Source: a virus
Lineage: Duplodnaviria > Heunggongvirae > Uroviricota > Caudoviricetes
DNA length: 7,202 bases
IMG/VR virus record: IMGVR_UViG_2706794691_000013
Strand: one strand, 5' to 3'
This document shows positions 2-6,823 of this stretch, in pieces. The notes beneath the pieces are model-generated. The model saw nothing but the letters and a program-made list of their open reading frames with translations, was not told the DNA's origin and made no database searches. The first letter of the stretch is position 1; every line of letters starts with the position of its first letter. The translations under genes and the position numbers were made by a program.

Positions 2-127
2 TCATGCCACGATCTAATCGACGGGCGGGTAAAAACCAGCGATTACACCAAAGAAGAATTGCGCCTGATGCATGCTGAAGGGGTTTTTCGCACACAAGAA
101 ATCTGGAGAAAGAAAGGTCATTTATGA
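2..127 (+). CDS. 3' end of an upstream gene (hypothetical protein, C-terminal 41 codons); start lies outside the window
   Basis: Frame 2 is open from the window edge to TGA at 125-127 (...DGRVKTSDYTKEELRLMHAEGVFRTQEIWRKKGHL*). Its stop overlaps the ATG at 124 as ATGA, a typical coupled junction. Function not recognised. Confidence 0.35.
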   Translation, partial: SCHDLIDGRVKTSDYTKEELRLMHAEGVFRTQEIWRKKGHL

Positions 128-598
128 TTTACCCAACGAATACAGGAAAAAGCGGAGAACACCTTCGCCTCACCACGCTGGAAAGTGTCTGGATTCAGGG
201 AAAACTACGTATGTGGGGGCGCTGGTCGTATATTGGCGGTGGCAGGTCAGAGAATGAAAAAAGCGGGAATAGAGAAAGCTGAGCTGGAAGCGTTTTTGCG
301 AGAGATGATCAACGGCAAGCAAAAGAGCTGGCTGGCGCATTGTACTGATGCAGAGGCGTTATGTATTGATCGAGTCATAAGTGAGGTGCTGGCAGAGCAT
401 CCAGGATTGATTTGCATTCTCCGGCAACGCTATGAAGGGCGGGGGATGACTAAGCGCAAAATGGCTGAATTGCTAAATGATGCACACCCAGAGTGGTGTT
501 TTAGCACATGCGAAAAACGGATTGCTAATTGGTTAGCTGTTGCTGAGTATGCCCTATATATTCCCATGCGTGAATCATTTGCTGAGAAAATGGCTTGA
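124..598 (+). pseudogene. Late antiterminator Q homolog (Phage_antitermQ-like), reading frame interrupted; the intact C-terminal ORF is 185/254..598
   Basis: ATG 124 with SD GGAG (104-107) opens a 52-codon frame-1 ORF (124..282) containing IQGKLRMWGRW, which resembles the N-terminal IQxxLxRWGxW motif of E. coli QuuD-type Q proteins (recalled from memory). Frame 2 (185..598) carries the conserved core CTDAEALCIDRV...RQRYEGRGMTKRKMAELL...EKRIANWLAVAEYAL. Both frames are open across 128-280; an A6 run at 257-262 is a plausible indel site. Position upstream of the lysis genes fits Q. Confidence 0.55.
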
Positions 599-1051: not shown

Positions 1052-1583
1052 GGGCTGGTTTATTGTATGCCAAATGATTATTAAAAAGGTTGTGTTAATA
1101 ACAAGATCCGAAATAATATGCCTGCATATTTTTATCTTGCTTATATTCTGCATATTGTGCATAGCAGGCTCATCCCTGCAATCAAAACTGTATGATGAGT
1201 ATTTTTTGTTTTCCTTTTTTCCAGTCATCTGATGATGACCTGCTTCTTTTTAATCCGGATCGACATCAGTTTTTTAAGATAATNNNNNNNNNNNNNNNNN
1301 NNNNNNNNNNNNNNNNNNNNNNNNNNNNNNNNNNNNNNNNNNNNNNNNNNNNNNNNNNNNNNNNNNNNNNNNNNNNNNNNNNNNNNNNNNNNNNNNNNNN
1401 NNNNNNNNNNNNNNNNNNNNNNNNNNNNNNNNNNNNNNNNNNNNNNNNNNNNNNNNNNNNNNNNNNNNNNNNNNNNNNNNNNNNNNNNNNNNNNNNNNNN
1501 NNNNNNNNNNNNNNNNNNNNNNNNNNNNNNNNNCTTTGTGTAAATGTTAACAAATGTGCGTTTTATTTGATCTGATTCGCTGT

Positions 1584-1613
1584 TTGAGCGTCCAAAACAA
1601 CGGTATATATAAT
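1584..1613 (+). promoter_or_regulatory. Candidate sigma70 promoter for the lipoprotein moron
   Basis: -35 TTGAGC (1584-1589), 18-nt spacer, -10 TATAAT (1608-1613) within TATATATAAT, about 30 nt upstream of ATG 1643 in an AT-rich tract. Hexamer match only. Confidence 0.3.
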
Positions 1614-1642
1614 CCTTTACTATATGACATATGTGAGGAAAA

Positions 1643-2071
1643 ATGGGTTTTCGTAGCGCATCAATTCTTACGTTGATTATTAGTGGGATTATTATCGGGT
1701 GCACTGATGCTGTATCGACAAATTATCATGACCGTACATCATATTACTCCGATAAAGCAATAGAGACACAGTATGTGAGTTCATCTGAACGTACTTCTGA
1801 TGTTAGTGAGGATATCCGTCTGTATGCCCATCAAATCAAGAGCGCCATCGAAAAACAGTTCGGGGATGCGAGTAAGTATTCAGGAAAAGAGTGTACACTG
1901 AGAATGCATATGGCCCCGAATGGCCTTCTACTGGAGGTTAAAAGAGAAAGTGGAGACCTCGATTTATGTCGTGAAGCGATGAATGCGATAAAGAATGCTG
2001 ATATACCTGCCCCCCCTTCGCCGGAAGTATATAAAGTATTTCAAAATGGGGTGCTGGATTTTAAACCCTGA
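1643..2071 (+). CDS. Lipoprotein with a TolA C-terminal (domain III)-like domain, copy 1; predicted outer-membrane lipoprotein
   Basis: Complete 142-aa ORF with SD GAGG (1635-1638). Signal peptide plus lipobox MGFRSASILTLIISGIIIG|C, with Thr at +2. The C-terminal ~80 aa (AHQIKSAIEKQFGDASKYSGKECTLRMHMAPNGLLLEVKRESGDLDLCREAMNAIKNADIPAPPSPEVYKVFQNGVLDFKP) closely matches the E. coli TolA C-terminus as I recall it (...AGQIKSAIESKFYDASSYAGKTCTLRIKLAPDGMLLDIKPEGGDPALCQAALAAAKLAKIPKPPSQAVYEVFKNAPLDFKP), including both Cys. Confidence 0.8.
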   Translation: MGFRSASILTLIISGIIIGCTDAVSTNYHDRTSYYSDKAIETQYVSSSERTSDVSEDIRLYAHQIKSAIEKQFGDASKYSGKECTLRMHMAPNGLLLEVKRESGDLDLCREAMNAIKNADIPAPPSPEVYKVFQNGVLDFKP

Positions 2072-2221
2072 TATTTATTGTTTTGTAATAAACGGTTTCG
2101 GCTTAGGTTTGTTCTGACACAGCTACGGCACTGAGCTAAATTTAGCGGATAGTCAGCTCTGAGCCAGTGGCGGACGTAACAACTACTATTGCTGAGATTT
2201 TAATGGATTGAGGAGCAAGAA

Positions 2222-2620
2222 GTGGGATTAAAGAAAATCGTTATGTTGACTTTTTGGGTCGGTTTTGTTGCGGGATGCACACCTTTACACCCTTCAGATT
2301 GCCACAAAACTACTGCTACAGGTAGTTGCAGTTCAGGACGCTGGGATGATCAGGATGAATGGGGGGCGCAAGCGCGGGGAATCAGAGCTGCAATTAATGC
2401 CAAACTTGATGAGCCGCATAACTGGAAAGGGAAAAAATGCAGGTTGCATATGGAATTCTCTCAGGATGGCACGGCGTTAAAAATATCTACCAGTAACGGT
2501 GATAAAGCCTATTGCGAAGCGATAAAGTCCGCAGCTCATAAAGCCAAATTTCCGGCCTTCAACAATCCGGAAGTCTACAGAGATTTTCAGAAATCTGGCT
2601 TTGACATGCNNNNNNNNNNN
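2222..2620 (+). CDS. Lipoprotein with a TolA domain III-like domain, copy 2 (diverged paralog); 3' end inside an N-mask, end coordinate estimated
   Basis: GTG 2222 with SD GAGGAG (2208-2213). Signal peptide plus lipobox MGLKKIVMLTFWVGFVAG|C, Thr at +2. The visible 129 aa align to copy 1 and TolA-III (KKCRLHMEFSQDGTALKIST...YCEAIKSAAHKAKFPAFNNPEVYRDFQKSGFDM), ending 2-4 codons before the expected C-terminus when masking begins at 2610. Confidence 0.7.
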
Positions 2621-2880
2621 NNNNNNNNNNNNNNNNNNNNNNNNNNNNNNNNNNNNNNNNNNNNNNNNNNNNNNNNNNNNNNNNNNNNNNNNNNNNNNNN
2701 NNNNNNNNNNNNNNNNNNNNNNNNNNNNNNNNNNNNNNNNNNNNNNNNNNNNNNNNNNNNNNNNNNNNNNNNNNNNNNNNNNNNNNNNNNNNNNNNNNNN
2801 NNNNNNNNNNNNNNNNNNNNNNNNNNNNNNNNNNNNNNNNNNNNNNNNNNNNNNNNNNNNNNNNNTGCGGAGGTGAGGCT

Positions 2881-3096
2881 ATGAAATCCATGGACAAAAT
2901 TTCAACAGGCATTGCCTACGGCACCTCCGCAGGCAGTGCTGGCTACTGGTTTTTACNNNNNNNNNNNNNNNNNNNNNNNNNNNNNNNNNNNNNNNNNNNN
3001 NNNNNNNNNNNNNNNNNNNNNNNNNNNNNNNNNNNNNNNNNNNNNNNNNNNNNNNNNNNNNNNNNNNNNNNNNNNNNNNNNNNNNNNNNNNNNNNN
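2881..3096 (+). CDS. Class II holin (phage 21 S-type pinholin) with dual-start motif; interior and 3' end masked, end estimated from the 71-aa family length
   Basis: SD GGAGG (2869-2873), 7 nt before ATG 2881. N-terminus [25 protein letters not shown] matches the phage 21 S21 / E. coli EssD-type holin N-terminus (recalled), with Met1 and Met4 as the antiholin/holin starts. Lies immediately upstream of a SAR endolysin. Confidence 0.65.
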
Positions 3097-3282
3097 NNNN
3101 NNNNNNNNNNNNNNNNNNNNNNNNNNNNNNNNNNNNNNNNNNNNNNNNNNNNNNNNNNNNNNNNNNNNNNNNNNNNNNNNNNNNNNNNNNNNNNNNNNNN
3201 NNNNNNAAACTAATACCAATAATCTTTCTGCTACAGCGATGGTTATTGGAGAGCTGGGGAAGAGAGCACCGAAGGAAATATG

Positions 3283-3780
3283 ATGCAGTCATCATTACGC
3301 AAAGCTGTCACAGCTGCTATTGGTGGCGGGGCTATTGCCATAGCGTCTATGCTCATCACTGGCCCAAGTGGTAACGATGGTCTGGAAGGTGTCAGTTACA
3401 TACCATACAAAGATATTGTTGGTGTATGGACTGTATGTCACGGGCATACAGGAAAAGACATCATGCTCGGTAAAACGTATACCAAAGCAGAATGCAAAAC
3501 ACTCTTGAATAAAGACCTTGCCACTGTCGCCAGACAAATTAACCCGTACATCAAAGTCGATATACCGGAAACAACGCGCGGCGCTCTTTACTCGTTCGTT
3601 TACAACGTGGGTGCTGGTAATTTCAGAACATCGACGCTTCTTCGCAAAATAAACCAGGGCGATATCAAAGGCGCATGTGATCAGCTACGTCGCTGGACAT
3701 ATGCTGGCGGTAAGCAATGGAAAGGTCTCATGACTCGTCGTGAGATTGAGCGTGAAATCTGTTTGTGGGGTCAGCAATGA
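3283..3780 (+). CDS. SAR (signal-arrest-release) endolysin, phage 21 R-type lysozyme (GH24)
   Basis: Complete ORF. G/A-rich weakly hydrophobic N-terminal SAR helix ([23 protein letters not shown]); E-8x-D-5x-T catalytic spacing (LEG..KD..WT) falls at E35/D44/T50 if translation starts at ATG 3283 (the adjacent ATG 3280 is an alternative); near-identical to phage 21 R as recalled. Stop TGA 3778-3780 overlaps the Rz ATG. Confidence 0.9.
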
Positions 3781-4241
3781 ACAGAGTAACCGCGATTATC
3801 TCCGCTCTGGTTATCTGCATCATCGTCTGCCTGTCATGGGCTGTTAATCATTACCGTGATAACGCCATTACCTACAAAGCCCAGCGCGACAAAAATGCCA
3901 GAGAACTGAAGCTGGCGAACGCGGCAATTACTGACATGCAGATGCGTCAGCGTGATGTTGCTGCGCTCGATGCAAAATACACGAAGGAGTTAGCTGATGC
4001 GAAAGCTGAAAATGATGCTCTGCGTGATGATGTTGCCGCTGGTCGTCGTCGGTTGCACATCAAAGCAGTCTGTCAGTCAGTGCGTGAAGCCACCACCGCC
4101 TCCGGCGTGGATAATGCAGCCTCCCCCCGACTGGCAGACACCGCTGAACGGGATTATTTCACCCTCCGGGAACGACTGGTAATGATGCAGGCCCAACTTG
4201 AAGGTGCTCAGCAATACATAACCGAGCAGTGTTTAAAGTAA
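3777..4241 (+). CDS. Rz: i-spanin Rz (inner-membrane spanin subunit)
   Basis: ATG 3777 overlaps the endolysin stop (ATGA). N-terminal TM helix ([20 protein letters not shown]) followed by a periplasmic coiled-coil-like region rich in A/E/R/D/K; stop TAA 4239-4241. Confidence 0.85.
3997..4182 (+). CDS. Rz1: o-spanin Rz1 (outer-membrane lipoprotein), embedded in the +1 frame of Rz
   Basis: SD AAGGAG (3984-3989), 7 nt before ATG 3997. 61 aa with lipobox LVVVG|C and a proline-rich mature region ([16 protein letters not shown]); fully nested within Rz in a different frame. Confidence 0.85.
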
Positions 4242-4439: not shown

Positions 4440-5897
4440 NNNNNNNNNNNNNNNNNNNNNNNNNNNNNNNNNNNNNNNNNNNNNNNNNNNNNNNAANNNN
4501 NNNNNNNNNNNNNNNNNNNNNNNNNNNNNNNNNNNNNNNNNNNNNNNNNNNNNNNNNNNNNNNNNNNNNNNNNNNNNNNNNNNNNNNNNNNNNNNNNNNN
4601 NNNNNNNNNNNNNNNNNNNNNNNNNNNNNNNNNNNNNNNNNNNNNNNNNNNNNNNNNNNNNNNNNNNNNNNNNNNNNNNNNNNNNNNNNNNNNNNNNNNN
4701 NNNNNNNNNNNNNNNNNNNNNNNNNNNNNNNNNNNNNNNNNNNNNNNNNNNNNNNNNNNNNNNNNNNNNNNNNNNNGTNNNNNNNNNNNNNNNNNNNNNN
4801 NNNNNNNNNNNNNNNNNNNNNNNNNNNNNNNNNNNNNNNNNNNNNNNNNNNNNNNNNNNNNNNNNNNNNNNNNNNNNNNNNNNNNNNNNNNNNNNNNNNN
4901 NNNNNNNNNNNNNNNNNNNNNNNNNNNNNNNNNNNNNNNNNNNNNNNNNNNNNNNNNNNNNNNNNNNNNNNNNNNNNNNNNNNNNNNNNNNNNNNNNNNN
5001 NNNNNNNNNNNNNNNNNNNNNNNNNNNNNNNNNNNNNNNNNNNNTTATAGACTTGCAGGAATGCCTTTGTTTGATGCTATTTGTCACGGGATTTCCACAG
5101 TTTCGCTTGGTGGTTTCTCAACTCATAGCGAGAGTATCGGATATTTTAATAACTATTTGGTTGAGCTGGTGGCTGGTTCTTTTTCCCTGCTATCGGCTTT
5201 CAACTTCACTCTTTGGTATATTGTTATTAGCAGAAAAACGATAAAACCTTTAATCAGAGATATTGAACTTCGTTTCTTTCTGTTAATAGCCTTAGGGGTG
5301 ATCATTGTTACCTCTTTCCAGGTCTGGCATATAGGTATGTATGACTTGCATGGAAGTTTTATTCATTCGTTTTTTCTTGCCAGCTCCATGCTCACTGATA
5401 ATGGTTTAGCTACGCAGGATTATGCAAACTGGCCCACGCACACGATAGTGTTTTTGCTGTTGTCAAGTTTCTTTGGGGGATGTATAGGTTCAACCTGTGG
5501 TGGAATTAAGTCACTTCGATTTCTTATACTTTTCAAACAAAGCAAACACGAGATAAATCAGCTTTCTCATCCCAGAGCGTTGTTGAGTGTAAATGTAGGA
5601 GGGAAGATAGTTACAGATCGTGTAATGAGGTCTGTATGGAGTTTCTTTTTTCTTTATACTCTCTTCACGGTGTTTTTTATACTGGTGTTAAATGGTATGG
5701 GATATGATTTTCTTACATCATTTGCAACAGTGGCTGCATGTATTAATAATATGGGATTAGGTTTTGGGGCTACTGCATCGTCATTCGGAGTGCTTAATGA
5801 CATTGCAAAATATTTAATGTGCATAGCTATGATTCTTGGTCGCCTTGAAATTTATCCTGTTATTATATTGTTTTCAGGTTTTTTTTGGCGCTCCTAA
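4440..5897 (+). CDS. trkG: Trk-system K+ uptake protein TrkG (TrkH family); N-terminal part lies in an N-mask and the start is estimated from the ~485-aa TrkG length
   Basis: Frame open from the mask edge (5046) to TAA 5895-5897; the visible 284 aa (YRLAGMPLFDAICHGISTVSLGGFSTHSESIGYF...GGIKSLRFLILFKQ...LEIYPVIILFSGFFWRS) show TrkH-family motifs and match the Rac prophage TrkG C-terminal half as recalled. Confidence 0.8.
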   Translation, partial: XXXXXXXXXXXXXXXXXXXXXXXXXXXXXXXXXXXXXXXXXXXXXXXXXXXXXXXXXXXXXXXXXXXXXXXXXXXXXXXXXXXXXXXXXXXXXXXXXXXXXXXXXXXXXXXXXXXXXXXXXXXXXXXXXXXXXXXXXXXXXXXXXXXXXXXXXXXXXXXXXXXXXXXXXXXXXXXXXXXXXXXXXXXXXXXXXXXXXXXXXXYRLAGMPLFDAICHGISTVSLGGFSTHSESIGYFNNYLVELVAGSFSLLSAFNFTLWYIVISRKTIKPLIRDIELRFFLLIALGVIIVTSFQVWHIGMYDLHGSFIHSFFLASSMLTDNGLATQDYANWPTHTIVFLLLSSFFGGCIGSTCGGIKSLRFLILFKQSKHEINQLSHPRALLSVNVGGKIVTDRVMRSVWSFFFLYTLFTVFFILVLNGMGYDFLTSFATVAACINNMGLGFGATASSFGVLNDIAKYLMCIAMILGRLEIYPVIILFSGFFWRS

Positions 5898-6034
5898 TAT
5901 ATGGCTGATTTATAATTGTGAGTTTAATATTATGTTGACTCACTCATTGATCCAATACCTAACTTTACCAGCAACACCTCCGCCCCCAGTAGCACTGGCT
6001 GCTGGGGTGCGTTTTATTCATAAAGCAAGGCTGT

Positions 6035-6823
6035 ATGAGCGAGAAATTAAAGATAGTCTATCGCCCATTACAAGAATTGTCACCGTATGCGCACAACGCC
6101 AGGACGCACAGTACTGAGCAGGTGGCACAACTGGTAGAAAGTATTAAGCAATTCGGCTGGACTAATCCGGTGCTGATTGACGAAAAGGGCGAAATTATTG
6201 CGGGTCACGGTCGTGTTATGGCGGCTGAAATGCTCAAAATGGATTCTGTTCCGGTCATTGTTCTGTCTGGCCTGACGGATGAGCAGAAAAAGGCGTACCG
6301 CCTGGCAGATAATCGCCTGCCGATGAATGCTGGCTGGGATGAAGATCTGTTGCGGATGGAGCTGTCGGACCTAATCAATGCTGATTTTGATGTCTCCCTG
6401 ACAGGCTTCATCCCGGCAGAAATTGATGAACTGTTGACGGATGTTTTGCCCGGTACAGGAAATGAGGAGGAGCCGTATACGACGAAAATTGATACGCCTG
6501 TTTATGAGCCGTCAGGCGGTAAACCGGATATCAGTGAACTGTACGACGATACGAAAACTCAGGAGCTGATCAGCCGGATACGTTCGGCGTCCCTTGATCC
6601 TGATATTGAGAAATTCCTCCTGTGTGCAGCAGAACGTCACACGGTGTTTAATTTCAGCAGAATTGCGGACTATTACGCTCATGCCCCCGCTGAAATTCAG
6701 TGCCTTTTCGAGGAGTCGGCGCTGGTGATCATTGATTATCAGCAGGCTATTGAAAATGGATTTGTCCGAATGACGCAGCGCATGGTGGAGATCATGCATG
6801 GCGGGGAGGAGGAATATGCGTGA
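6035..6823 (+). CDS. ynaK: ParB-like nuclease domain (ParB/Srx fold) protein, full-length YnaK-like
   Basis: Complete 262-aa ORF. N-terminal ParB-N-like domain with the GHGR motif (IIAGHGRVMAA) and an acidic C-terminal half; N-terminus matches E. coli K-12 Rac YnaK as recalled (that copy is truncated); sits directly downstream of trkG, as in Rac. Confidence 0.8.
   Translation: MSEKLKIVYRPLQELSPYAHNARTHSTEQVAQLVESIKQFGWTNPVLIDEKGEIIAGHGRVMAAEMLKMDSVPVIVLSGLTDEQKKAYRLADNRLPMNAGWDEDLLRMELSDLINADFDVSLTGFIPAEIDELLTDVLPGTGNEEEPYTTKIDTPVYEPSGGKPDISELYDDTKTQELISRIRSASLDPDIEKFLLCAAERHTVFNFSRIADYYAHAPAEIQCLFEESALVIIDYQQAIENGFVRMTQRMVEIMHGGEEEYA

Follow-up and report, generated by a model that had tools for sequence, protein, structure and literature searches.

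The question raised by this stretch of DNA (IMG/VR record IMGVR_UViG_2706794691_000013; 7,202 nucleotides, referred to here as the window) is what two short genes are doing between the Q-like late antiterminator gene and the holin gene of a prophage. The late region of a defective, Rac-like lambdoid prophage of Escherichia coli makes up the window, in which the open reading frame ORF1 (positions 1643-2071, plus strand) encodes 142 amino acids and ORF2 (2222-2617, plus strand) encodes 131 from a GTG start. Both products were identified as lipoproteins carrying a genuine domain III of TolA (TolA-III) and as members of the TolA_C family which are not themselves TolA; this identification is fully supported. 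The function we favour, at a probability of about one half, is that these outer-membrane-tethered copies of TolA-III serve as decoys for the ligands of TolA-III. The unmasked positions 1536-2609 match many E. coli chromosomes at 100%. Other parts of the window are masked by six runs of N (250-280 nucleotides each), and the masked stretches, including the last two codons and stop of ORF2 (2610-2617, giving the ending FDMRG), were taken from the flank-identical locus L001 (NZ_CP033250).

The domain itself occupies amino acids 54-142 of ORF1 (1802..2071 with the stop, plus strand; Cys84, Cys109 and the beta3 strand VLDFKP) and amino acids 45-131 of ORF2 (2354..2617 with the stop, plus strand, of which 2610-2617 are masked). 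Both proteins scored well above the cut-off of 25 bits for Pfam PF06519 (ORF1 82.6 bits, E 2.4e-23; ORF2 54.7 bits, E 1.2e-14). By BLASTP, ORF1 is identical to K-12 TolA at 52 of 86 positions (60%; TolA 336-421) and ORF2 at 26 of 77 (34%), which agrees with an earlier reading of the DNA made without database searches (the sequence-only reading), where copy 1 had been put at roughly 60% identity and copy 2 had been called more diverged. The same reading held both disulfide cysteines to be conserved, and C84/C109 of ORF1 and C73/C98 of ORF2 were found to be invariant columns across both families, matching C363/C388 of TolA; we take this to be the pair that forms the disulfide of TolA in solved structures.

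AlphaFold2 models of the two proteins consist of a disordered N-terminal third followed by a domain with the helix and strand order of TolA-III, modelled at a predicted local distance difference test score (pLDDT) of 84-96. The predicted domains have a three-helix, three-strand alpha/beta fold which superposes on solved TolA-III structures. In Foldseek searches the best match of ORF1 was 2x9a_B (E 3e-12, target-normalised template-modelling (TM) score 0.96, root-mean-square deviation 0.6 Å) and that of ORF2 was 3qdp (E 1.5e-8, target-normalised TM 0.93, root-mean-square deviation 1.0 Å); the top sequence matches in the PDB were likewise E. coli TolA-III entries (E ~1e-27). The proposal that the C-terminal domain is TolA-III was thereby borne out for both ORFs, by profile search as well as by structure prediction and superposition.

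The remainder of TolA is missing from both proteins. No transmembrane anchor for TolQ-TolR was found in ORF1 or ORF2, the N-terminus being a cleavable lipoprotein signal peptide, nor was there an Ala/Lys-rich helical domain II, the gap between the lipobox cysteine and the domain being a disordered linker of 25-33 residues. The NCBIfam TolA models PRK09510 and TIGR02794 align to both proteins only over their last ~95 positions, and the PRK09510 scores (107.8 bits for ORF1 and 53.4 for ORF2) are both below the equivalog cut-off of 213. The two genes also stand outside the ybgC-tolQRA-tolB-pal-cpoB operon, between the prophage Q-like gene and the holin gene.

Lipoprotein signals were assessed with a PROSITE-type rule (positive n-region, hydrophobic h-region, lipobox [LVI][ASTVI][GAS]C with the Cys at 15-35). 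The signal peptide of ORF1 (amino acids 1-20; 1643..1702, plus strand) reads MGFRSASILTLIISGIIIG followed by C20-T21, with the lipobox IIG/C20, and that of ORF2 (amino acids 1-19; 2222..2278, plus strand) reads MGLKKIVMLTFWVGFVAG followed by C19-T20, with the lipobox VAG/C19. Positive n-region residues are R4 in ORF1 and K4 and K5 in ORF2, and both sequences fit the rule, in agreement with the lipobox Cys and the Thr at +2 which the sequence-only reading had seen in each. In pattern tests the lipobox was present in 24/27 members of the ORF1 family, where it is kept down to 65% identity, and in 117/119 members of the ORF2 family, and Asp at +2 was found in no member of the two families, ORF1 and ORF2 included, nor among 43 further short TolA-III lipoproteins. 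In E. coli, lipoproteins without Asp at +2 go to the outer membrane. Because neither product has Asp at this position, the predicted destination of both, by way of the Lol pathway, is the inner leaflet of the outer membrane.

Between lipobox and domain, the tether of ORF1 (amino acids 21-53; 1703..1801, plus strand) has a high content of Ser, Thr, Tyr and Asp and is predicted to be disordered, with pLDDT below 50 at residues 18-50; no other part of the gene evolves as fast, the ratio of nonsynonymous to synonymous substitution rates (dN/dS) being 0.49-0.78 here. The tether of ORF2 (amino acids 20-44; 2279..2353, plus strand), also of low pLDDT, contains a Cys/Trp motif, (T/A)PLHPSxCHKTTAxGxCxSG(R/H)W(D/E)DxDxWG, which is near-invariant across genera and brings two extra Cys (C27 and C36) and two Trp. 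A short strand appears at residues 36-38 of this tether in the AlphaFold model, at low confidence.

The ligand surfaces of TolA-III have been mapped, and the two proteins could be compared with TolA residue by residue. At beta3 (A415-K420) the TolB N-terminus, g3p N1 and colicin N each add a strand (PMC4339652, PMC7391070); binding needs backbone hydrogen bonds made by D418 and K420, and a proline substituted for either residue eliminates both binding and Tol function (PMC4339652). Colicin A binds the opposite edge of the sheet (L375-P380) and makes cation-pi contacts with K368, K379 and K396 (PMC3365938). The sequence-only reading had also listed Pal among the ligands, a binding which is disputed (PMC7391070). 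Reported affinities for TolA-III are 1 µM for colicin N, 12-15 µM for g3p and ~40 µM for TolB (PMC4339652), and 1.3 µM for colicin A (PMC3365938).

At beta3, the LDFKP of TolA is identical in ORF1 and is FDMRG in ORF2, in which the Asp is kept and there is no proline; at the two critical positions proline occurs in neither protein. The colicin A box, LLDIKP in TolA, reads LLEVKR in ORF1 and ALKIST in ORF2. The three cation-pi lysines K368, K379 and K396 are His, Lys and Lys, respectively, in ORF1 and Glu, Ser and His in ORF2. Judged from these aligned residues, both mapped ligand surfaces are preserved in ORF1, and ORF2 retains no more than a strand competent for strand addition. For copy 2 the functional part of the sequence-only reading is not supported in full, the colicin A contacts having been lost (K368E, D377K, K379S, K396H); because of that loss ORF2 probably has a ligand range different from that of ORF1.

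Under the decoy proposal, signal peptidase II would cleave each precursor and leave, under the outer membrane, a lipidated Cys, a tether of 25-33 residues and a disulfide-containing domain III. Without the anchor and domain II of TolA there would be no coupling to the TolQ-TolR motor, and because both parts are missing the two proteins should not be energised by TolQR. The tether would hang the domain just below the porins and pilus entry sites, where it could intercept parasites of TolA-III on their way into the periplasm, candidates being filamentous phages through their g3p N1 and group A colicins (A, N and relatives) through their T-domains; once docked, a ligand would be trapped beneath the outer membrane in an unenergised complex, a dead end, and the outcome for the lysogen would be tolerance or resistance. 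The affinities would favour the parasites, the TolA-TolB contact (~40 µM) being ~10-40x weaker than the parasite contacts (~1-15 µM), and because TolB binds more weakly a moderate amount of decoy may protect the cell and leave Tol-Pal working. Two specificities would be on offer, with ORF1 a close mimic of TolA-III and ORF2 serving a different range of ligands. Lipidation, location at the outer membrane, expression in the lysogen, ligand binding and phenotype are all parts of this proposal that we infer from the sequence. Levengood-Freyermuth, Click and Webster reportedly found in 1993 (J Bacteriol 175:222) that free periplasmic TolA-III led to group A colicin tolerance and leakiness, the phenotype to be expected under the present proposal. 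Sequestration of TolA in the opposite sense, by periplasmic pIII-N1, makes cells resistant to colicin A and lowers fd infection by 4 logs (PMC10424213). A study of the ciprofloxacin-induced CP-933O gene EDL933_2012, tied there to 'TolA' (PMC11125564), was considered as a source of expression evidence and rejected, its own table describing the product as a tail fibre protein.

The setting of the two genes bears on whom they serve. The Q-like late antiterminator gene (124..598, plus strand) is broken in the window: by comparison with L001, whose intact homologue of 180 amino acids belongs to phrog_753 ('anti-termination protein Q-like', E 2e-79 against PHROGs), it carries a 68-nucleotide deletion (junction ~251-255) which shifts the frame after ~42 codons and leaves the remnant ORFs 124-282 and 185-598. 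This deletion was absent from all 68 of 68 related loci compared. The sequence-only reading had named Q as the upstream flank of the pair; the Q-like gene is there, though in the window it is frameshifted. With its Q-like gene in this state, the late genes of this prophage copy probably cannot be switched on. ORF1 and ORF2 are intact and 100% conserved in the same prophage, and because they are, a role independent of lytic growth is favoured.

The pair was found in 774 genomes and in more than 125 IMG/VR prophage contigs. In phage mEp460_ev081 it occupies the same slot, with a different Q gene before it and a partly different lysis cassette after it. The ORF1 family is confined to prophages of E. 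coli and Shigella, where it was found in 898/5426 complete genomes with 959/962 sites chromosomal; variants of ORF1 at 91% and 66% identity occupy the same Q-to-holin slot in other lambdoid prophages, behind other Q types and without ORF2. By this distribution the pair is a moron, an extra unit between conserved late genes which is variably present among related phages, as had been suggested from its position, and the survey of other prophages agrees. A fold search of BFVD returned no viral protein with the TolA-III fold.

The ORF2 family, enterobacterial and older, is separate from that of ORF1, and its beta2 surface has changed. Its members fall into 370 clusters at 78-89% identity, from Citrobacter, Enterobacter, Klebsiella, Serratia, Raoultella and further genera. 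Across 41 species-representative genomes it occurs as a single gene whose surroundings are not syntenic, and no conserved context of the homologues in other genera was found, their neighbours being unrelated metabolic and regulatory genes. On plasmids (607 records) two settings were seen. In pO157-type IncF plasmids the ORF2 homologue follows psiB-psiA-hok, and in the I-complex plasmids (IncI1/B/O, IncK2/Z) it directly follows the nikA-nikB relaxase genes, in 4/4 conjugative examples. The I-complex homologue, WP_001335086, starts 68 nucleotides after nikB on the same strand, facing trbC-trbA (loci L212, L213, L219 and L220, with matches at ~6995-7426 or 4995-5426), and may be co-transcribed with the relaxase operon. 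The pili of I-complex plasmids are the receptor of phage IF1. According to the title of PDB entry 2x9a, the g3p of IF1 uses TolA-III as co-receptor.

When the ORF1 domain was used as query in an exhaustive HMMER search, 311 matches were obtained, and the best 149 of them were examined. Among these 149, 84 proteins were of 175 amino acids or fewer, and at least 43 of the 84 had a signal peptide with lipobox, in diverse clusters; most of the 43 keep the beta3 motif FKNAxLDF(K/R) of the TolA C-terminus. Membership of the class was restricted to proteins with a lipobox, because short TolA_C proteins without one may be artefacts. One such candidate, Tatumella ptyseos P0323 (L218 4865-6366), was rejected as a short TolA, being the 3' part of a real tolA in the tol operon which is split by a frameshift or gene-calling error. 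Single chromosomal genes encode the short TolA-III lipoproteins seen in Serratia fonticola and Gibbsiella. At three loci, from a Klebsiella sp. plasmid (L202 ~5500-6393), a Raoultella genome (L203) and Klebsiella spallanzanii (L204 5567-6387), the gene of an ORF2-family lipoprotein has directly before it, ~56 nucleotides upstream, that of a secreted protein of 125 amino acids which contains a TonB C-terminal domain (PF03544, E 1e-15) and nothing else; in L204 this pair lies between der and xseA-guaB. The presence of a TonB tip next to a TolA tip suggests decoys for both import systems.

The broken Q gene beside intact module genes, the carriage on I-complex plasmids and the TonB-tip pairing fit a benefit to the host better than a lytic role, and the accessory, mobile distribution (prophages, I-complex plasmids, pO157) is as expected of protective genes. 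Tentatively, and with the odds lying a little against so general a statement, mobile elements and accessory chromosomal sites may carry an envelope-defence class of TolA-tip receptor-mimic decoys, some paired with a TonB tip, which would neutralise colicins and filamentous phages, the two in the window differing in specificity.

Several points weigh against the decoy proposal. Lipidation and outer-membrane sorting are predictions, and the promoter and terminator of the module, described below, are consensus matches only. ORF2 is without the colicin A contacts and its beta3 side chains are unlike those of TolA. A decoy of this kind should also bind the TolB N-terminus, at a possible cost to the cell. 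Neither protein matched the PADLOC anti-phage defence models, and mEp460_ev081 was the sole match among 50,697 sequenced phage records. Finally, because many chromosomal homologues lie among ordinary metabolic genes with no link to a mobile element, these homologues may have a housekeeping role in the envelope.

Among the alternatives, the one which survives best is that the pair modulates Tol-Pal or assists lysis, although we consider it unlikely. The tethered domains would bind the TolB N-terminus (or CpoB) and compete with TolA, with the consequence of less Pal mobilisation and a looser outer membrane; late expression would then aid phage release, and a low level would give more vesicles. 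TolB does bind the beta3 strand which ORF1 conserves exactly (PMC4339652, PMC7391070), and point mutations blocking the TolA-TolB contact give a full tol phenotype (PMC4339652), but the weakness of that contact (~40 µM) means that large amounts of decoy would be needed. Similarly, the genes are placed directly upstream of holin, endolysin and spanins, in the late transcription unit, yet a complete spanin pair is already there, the plasmid and chromosomal homologues have no lysis context, and the survival of both genes beside a broken Q argues for a role independent of lytic growth.

A second alternative, quite improbable in our estimation, is that the domain is a strand-addition module for some other target (the periplasmic face of an outer-membrane transporter or porin, or a TonB box) and inactivates a phage or bacteriocin receptor from inside. 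The TolA-III fold is that of the TonB C-terminal domain, TonB-receptor complexes appear in the Foldseek lists, ORF1 scores 23.6 bits with Pfam TonB_2, above its cut-off of 22, and strand addition constrains the partner sequence little (PMC4339652). The surface of ORF2, diverged from TolA, and its invariant Cys/Trp tether motif would suit such a role. Against this, ORF1 retains TolA-specific contact residues, and the beta3 motif of TolA persists in most of the wider class. The prophage lipoproteins Llp and Cor, which act on FhuA, provide a precedent, but no sequence relationship to Cor or Llp was seen, both proteins matching phrog_5772 (function unknown in PHROGs) as their sole PHROGs family at E <= 0.01.

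Selection on the two genes was measured as dN/dS by the Nei-Gojobori method. For ORF1 it was 0.26-0.36 overall and 0.09-0.25 over domain III, and members of its family down to 65% identity all have 142 amino acids with the lipobox; for ORF2 against the pO157 homologue it was 0.12, and 0.08-0.12 over domain III. These ratios indicate that both genes are functional and under purifying selection. Recent capture of ORF1 from the tolA of E. coli was rejected: its nucleotide identity to K-12 tolA over domain III is 59%, with 41% at third codon positions, and a sensitive blastn search of the 5426 complete genomes with ORF1 listed no match at the host tolA locus. That ORF1 is a decaying captured host gene, a functionless tolA remnant, is accordingly very improbable, for although PGAP flags a pseudogene and rare variants frameshifted at a C7 tract exist in databases, the frame is complete with a ribosome-binding site and canonical lipobox, its length is kept down to 65% identity, its domain is constrained, its divergence from tolA is not that of a recent fragment, and the gene is present in 898 complete genomes with 156/157 sampled copies in frame.

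Origin by tandem duplication, implied when the sequence-only reading described the two genes as tandem paralogues, was also rejected. ORF1 is nearer to host TolA (60%) than to ORF2 (29%), the distributions of the two families differ, and each occurs elsewhere without the other; on these comparisons ORF1 and ORF2 are two separately evolved families standing side by side.

The existing annotation looks wrong for both genes. PGAP labels ORF1 a tolA pseudogene, 'incomplete; missing N-terminus' (L001 9276-9536), and because the genes are under purifying selection the pseudogene call looks mistaken, ORF1 appearing to be a complete, conserved lipoprotein gene. The 'tolA' label arises because ORF1, at 75.6 bits, exceeds the TIGR02794 cut-off of 59.45 through its C-terminal domain alone; ORF2, at 47 bits, is below it. 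The error is systematic, the flag having been found wherever RefSeq was inspected for a gene present in ~900 complete E. coli genomes. For ORF2 (L001 9708-10082), PGAP places the start at an internal Met (window 2243), which appears too far downstream and removes the charged n-region of the signal peptide. A Shine-Dalgarno sequence, GAGGAG (2210..2215, plus strand), can be read directly 6 nucleotides before the GTG start, and the n-region VKKIV, encoded only from this upstream start, is conserved in ORF2 homologues of other genera.

A run of seven C residues lies within ORF1 at 2010-2016, just ahead of the part that encodes the final helix and beta3. Several database proteins (P0010-P0017) have a frameshift at this tract and finish with a hydrophobic tail read in the +1 frame (ORF 1995-2117). 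Phase variation at the tract was rejected, as 156/157 sampled copies have C7 and one has C8, in keeping with rare slips or sequencing errors.

Set beside known systems, the decoy proposal has partial parallels. Host TolA-III (E. coli TolA ~333-421; PDB 1TOL, 1S62, 3QDP and 2X9A) shares with the two proteins the Pfam family, the fold (0.6-1.0 Å) and the Cys pair, and ORF1 keeps its beta3 and most of its colicin A box. Unlike host TolA, the two lack the TolQR-contacting helix and domain II, are encoded on mobile elements and not in the tol-pal operon, and are predicted to be lipid-anchored at the opposite (outer) membrane, which would leave them unable to transduce force. The free periplasmic TolA-III of the experiments reportedly made in 1993 was likewise an uncoupled domain III beside normal TolA; that domain was artificial, soluble and overproduced, whereas ORF1 and ORF2 are natural, diverged, prophage- or plasmid-borne and, by prediction, lipid-tethered. 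In small size, lipid anchor and placement as extra genes there is a likeness to known (pro)phage products. Llp (T5), Cor (phi80, N15 and the mEp phages) and Bor are small (pro)phage lipoproteins or late-region morons which guard the cell against phages and colicins with a common route of entry, and Llp and Cor block FhuA. With Llp and Cor there is no shared sequence or fold, and their target is a surface receptor, FhuA, whereas here a periplasmic hub domain is copied. Exclusion by pIII (g3p) N1 targets the same contact of g3p or colicin with TolA-III (PMC10424213), but in that case the host receptor is saturated by a phage ligand, and in the present proposal it is the incoming ligand that would be saturated, by a receptor copy.

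No description of phage- or plasmid-encoded TolA-III lipoproteins was found in a search of the full-text literature, most subscription journals being outside that search. The NCBI entries named 'cell envelope integrity TolA C-terminal domain-containing protein' (WP_001348108, WP_001453090 and WP_001335086) are the same proteins and their plasmid homologues; these names, like the PHROGs entry, are automatic and domain-based, and the attached Gene Ontology term 'bacteriocin transport' is electronically inferred. The genes are common in E. coli, and their products are known to databases only by automatic names, which agrees with the sequence-only reading, where they were not recognised as a described system. 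The proposed mechanism, mimicry of a periplasmic receptor domain by mobile elements, would add a new form to the known functions of exclusion and tolerance.

If the decoy proposal is true, defence would proceed by molecular mimicry of a periplasmic host hub, unlike the blocking of a surface receptor, and the outcomes of colicin warfare and filamentous-phage infection would be changed in about one sixth of sequenced E. coli (898/5426). It would be relevant to the clinical plasmids pO157, IncI1, IncK and IncB/O, would explain the intact genes in a defective prophage, and would give a reason for a TolA-III copy beside the relaxase gene on plasmids whose pili draw filamentous phages. It would also bear on colicin- and phage-based antimicrobials and on phage display hosts. 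The natural TolA-III variants could in addition serve as tools for working out through which surface a given ligand binds.

Candidate expression signals were found around the module. The sequence-only reading had given the pair its own promoter-like element, and a sigma-70 promoter-like sequence, TTGAGC-N18-TATAAT, does lie at 1584..1613 (plus strand), 30 nucleotides upstream of the ORF1 start and matching 10/12 consensus positions. The spacer of 150 nucleotides between ORF1 and ORF2 holds a second, weaker element, CTGACA-N17-TAAATT (2114..2142, plus strand; L001 9579-9607), which matches 9/12 positions and may be a chance match. In 2.4 kb, 11 promoter-like sites were counted against 6.1 expected in shuffled sequence; the stretch is AT-rich, which makes this weak evidence. 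After ORF2 there is a terminator-like GC hairpin followed by a T run (approximately 2743..2772, plus strand), read at L001 10208-10225 as AGCTCGCTACGGCGAGCT and then TTTTATATTG. The masked positions 2610-2865 are 12 nucleotides longer than L001 10075-10318, with identical flanks, and because the hairpin and the ORF2 stop both lie in this masked, length-differing DNA their window coordinates are approximate. Upstream of the module, between the Q-like gene and ORF1, stands an STnc100-type small RNA element (1346..1532, plus strand; masked, from L001 8811-8997), which matched Rfam RF02076 at 86.6 bits (gathering threshold 47, E 2.5e-18).

The gene order in L001 is DUF1367, DUF1364, the Q-like antiterminator, ~1 kb of non-coding DNA, ORF1, ORF2, holin EssD, lysozyme RrrD, Rz/Rz1, trkG, ynaK and terminase. 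In the window the downstream edge of the moron slot is formed by the partly masked, EssD-type holin gene (2881..3096, plus strand; essD in PGAP, with matches to phrog_9876 and phrog_20, both holin). It is followed by an endolysin gene (3280-3780, plus strand; PHROGs endolysin family), Rz (3765-4241, plus strand) and, embedded in Rz, Rz1 (3997-4182, plus strand), the last two being Rz-like spanins in PHROGs. These PGAP and PHROGs assignments, together with the Q-like gene upstream, agree with the placement of the pair between Q and holin in the sequence-only reading. The GC content of the module genes is 42-46%, compared with 49% in the flanking phage genes. Two hallmarks of Rac lie further downstream, namely the 3' part of trkG, a prophage-carried potassium transporter gene of only 38% GC (5061-5897), and a full-length ParB-like ynaK of 262 amino acids (6035-6823), which is annotated as truncated in L001.

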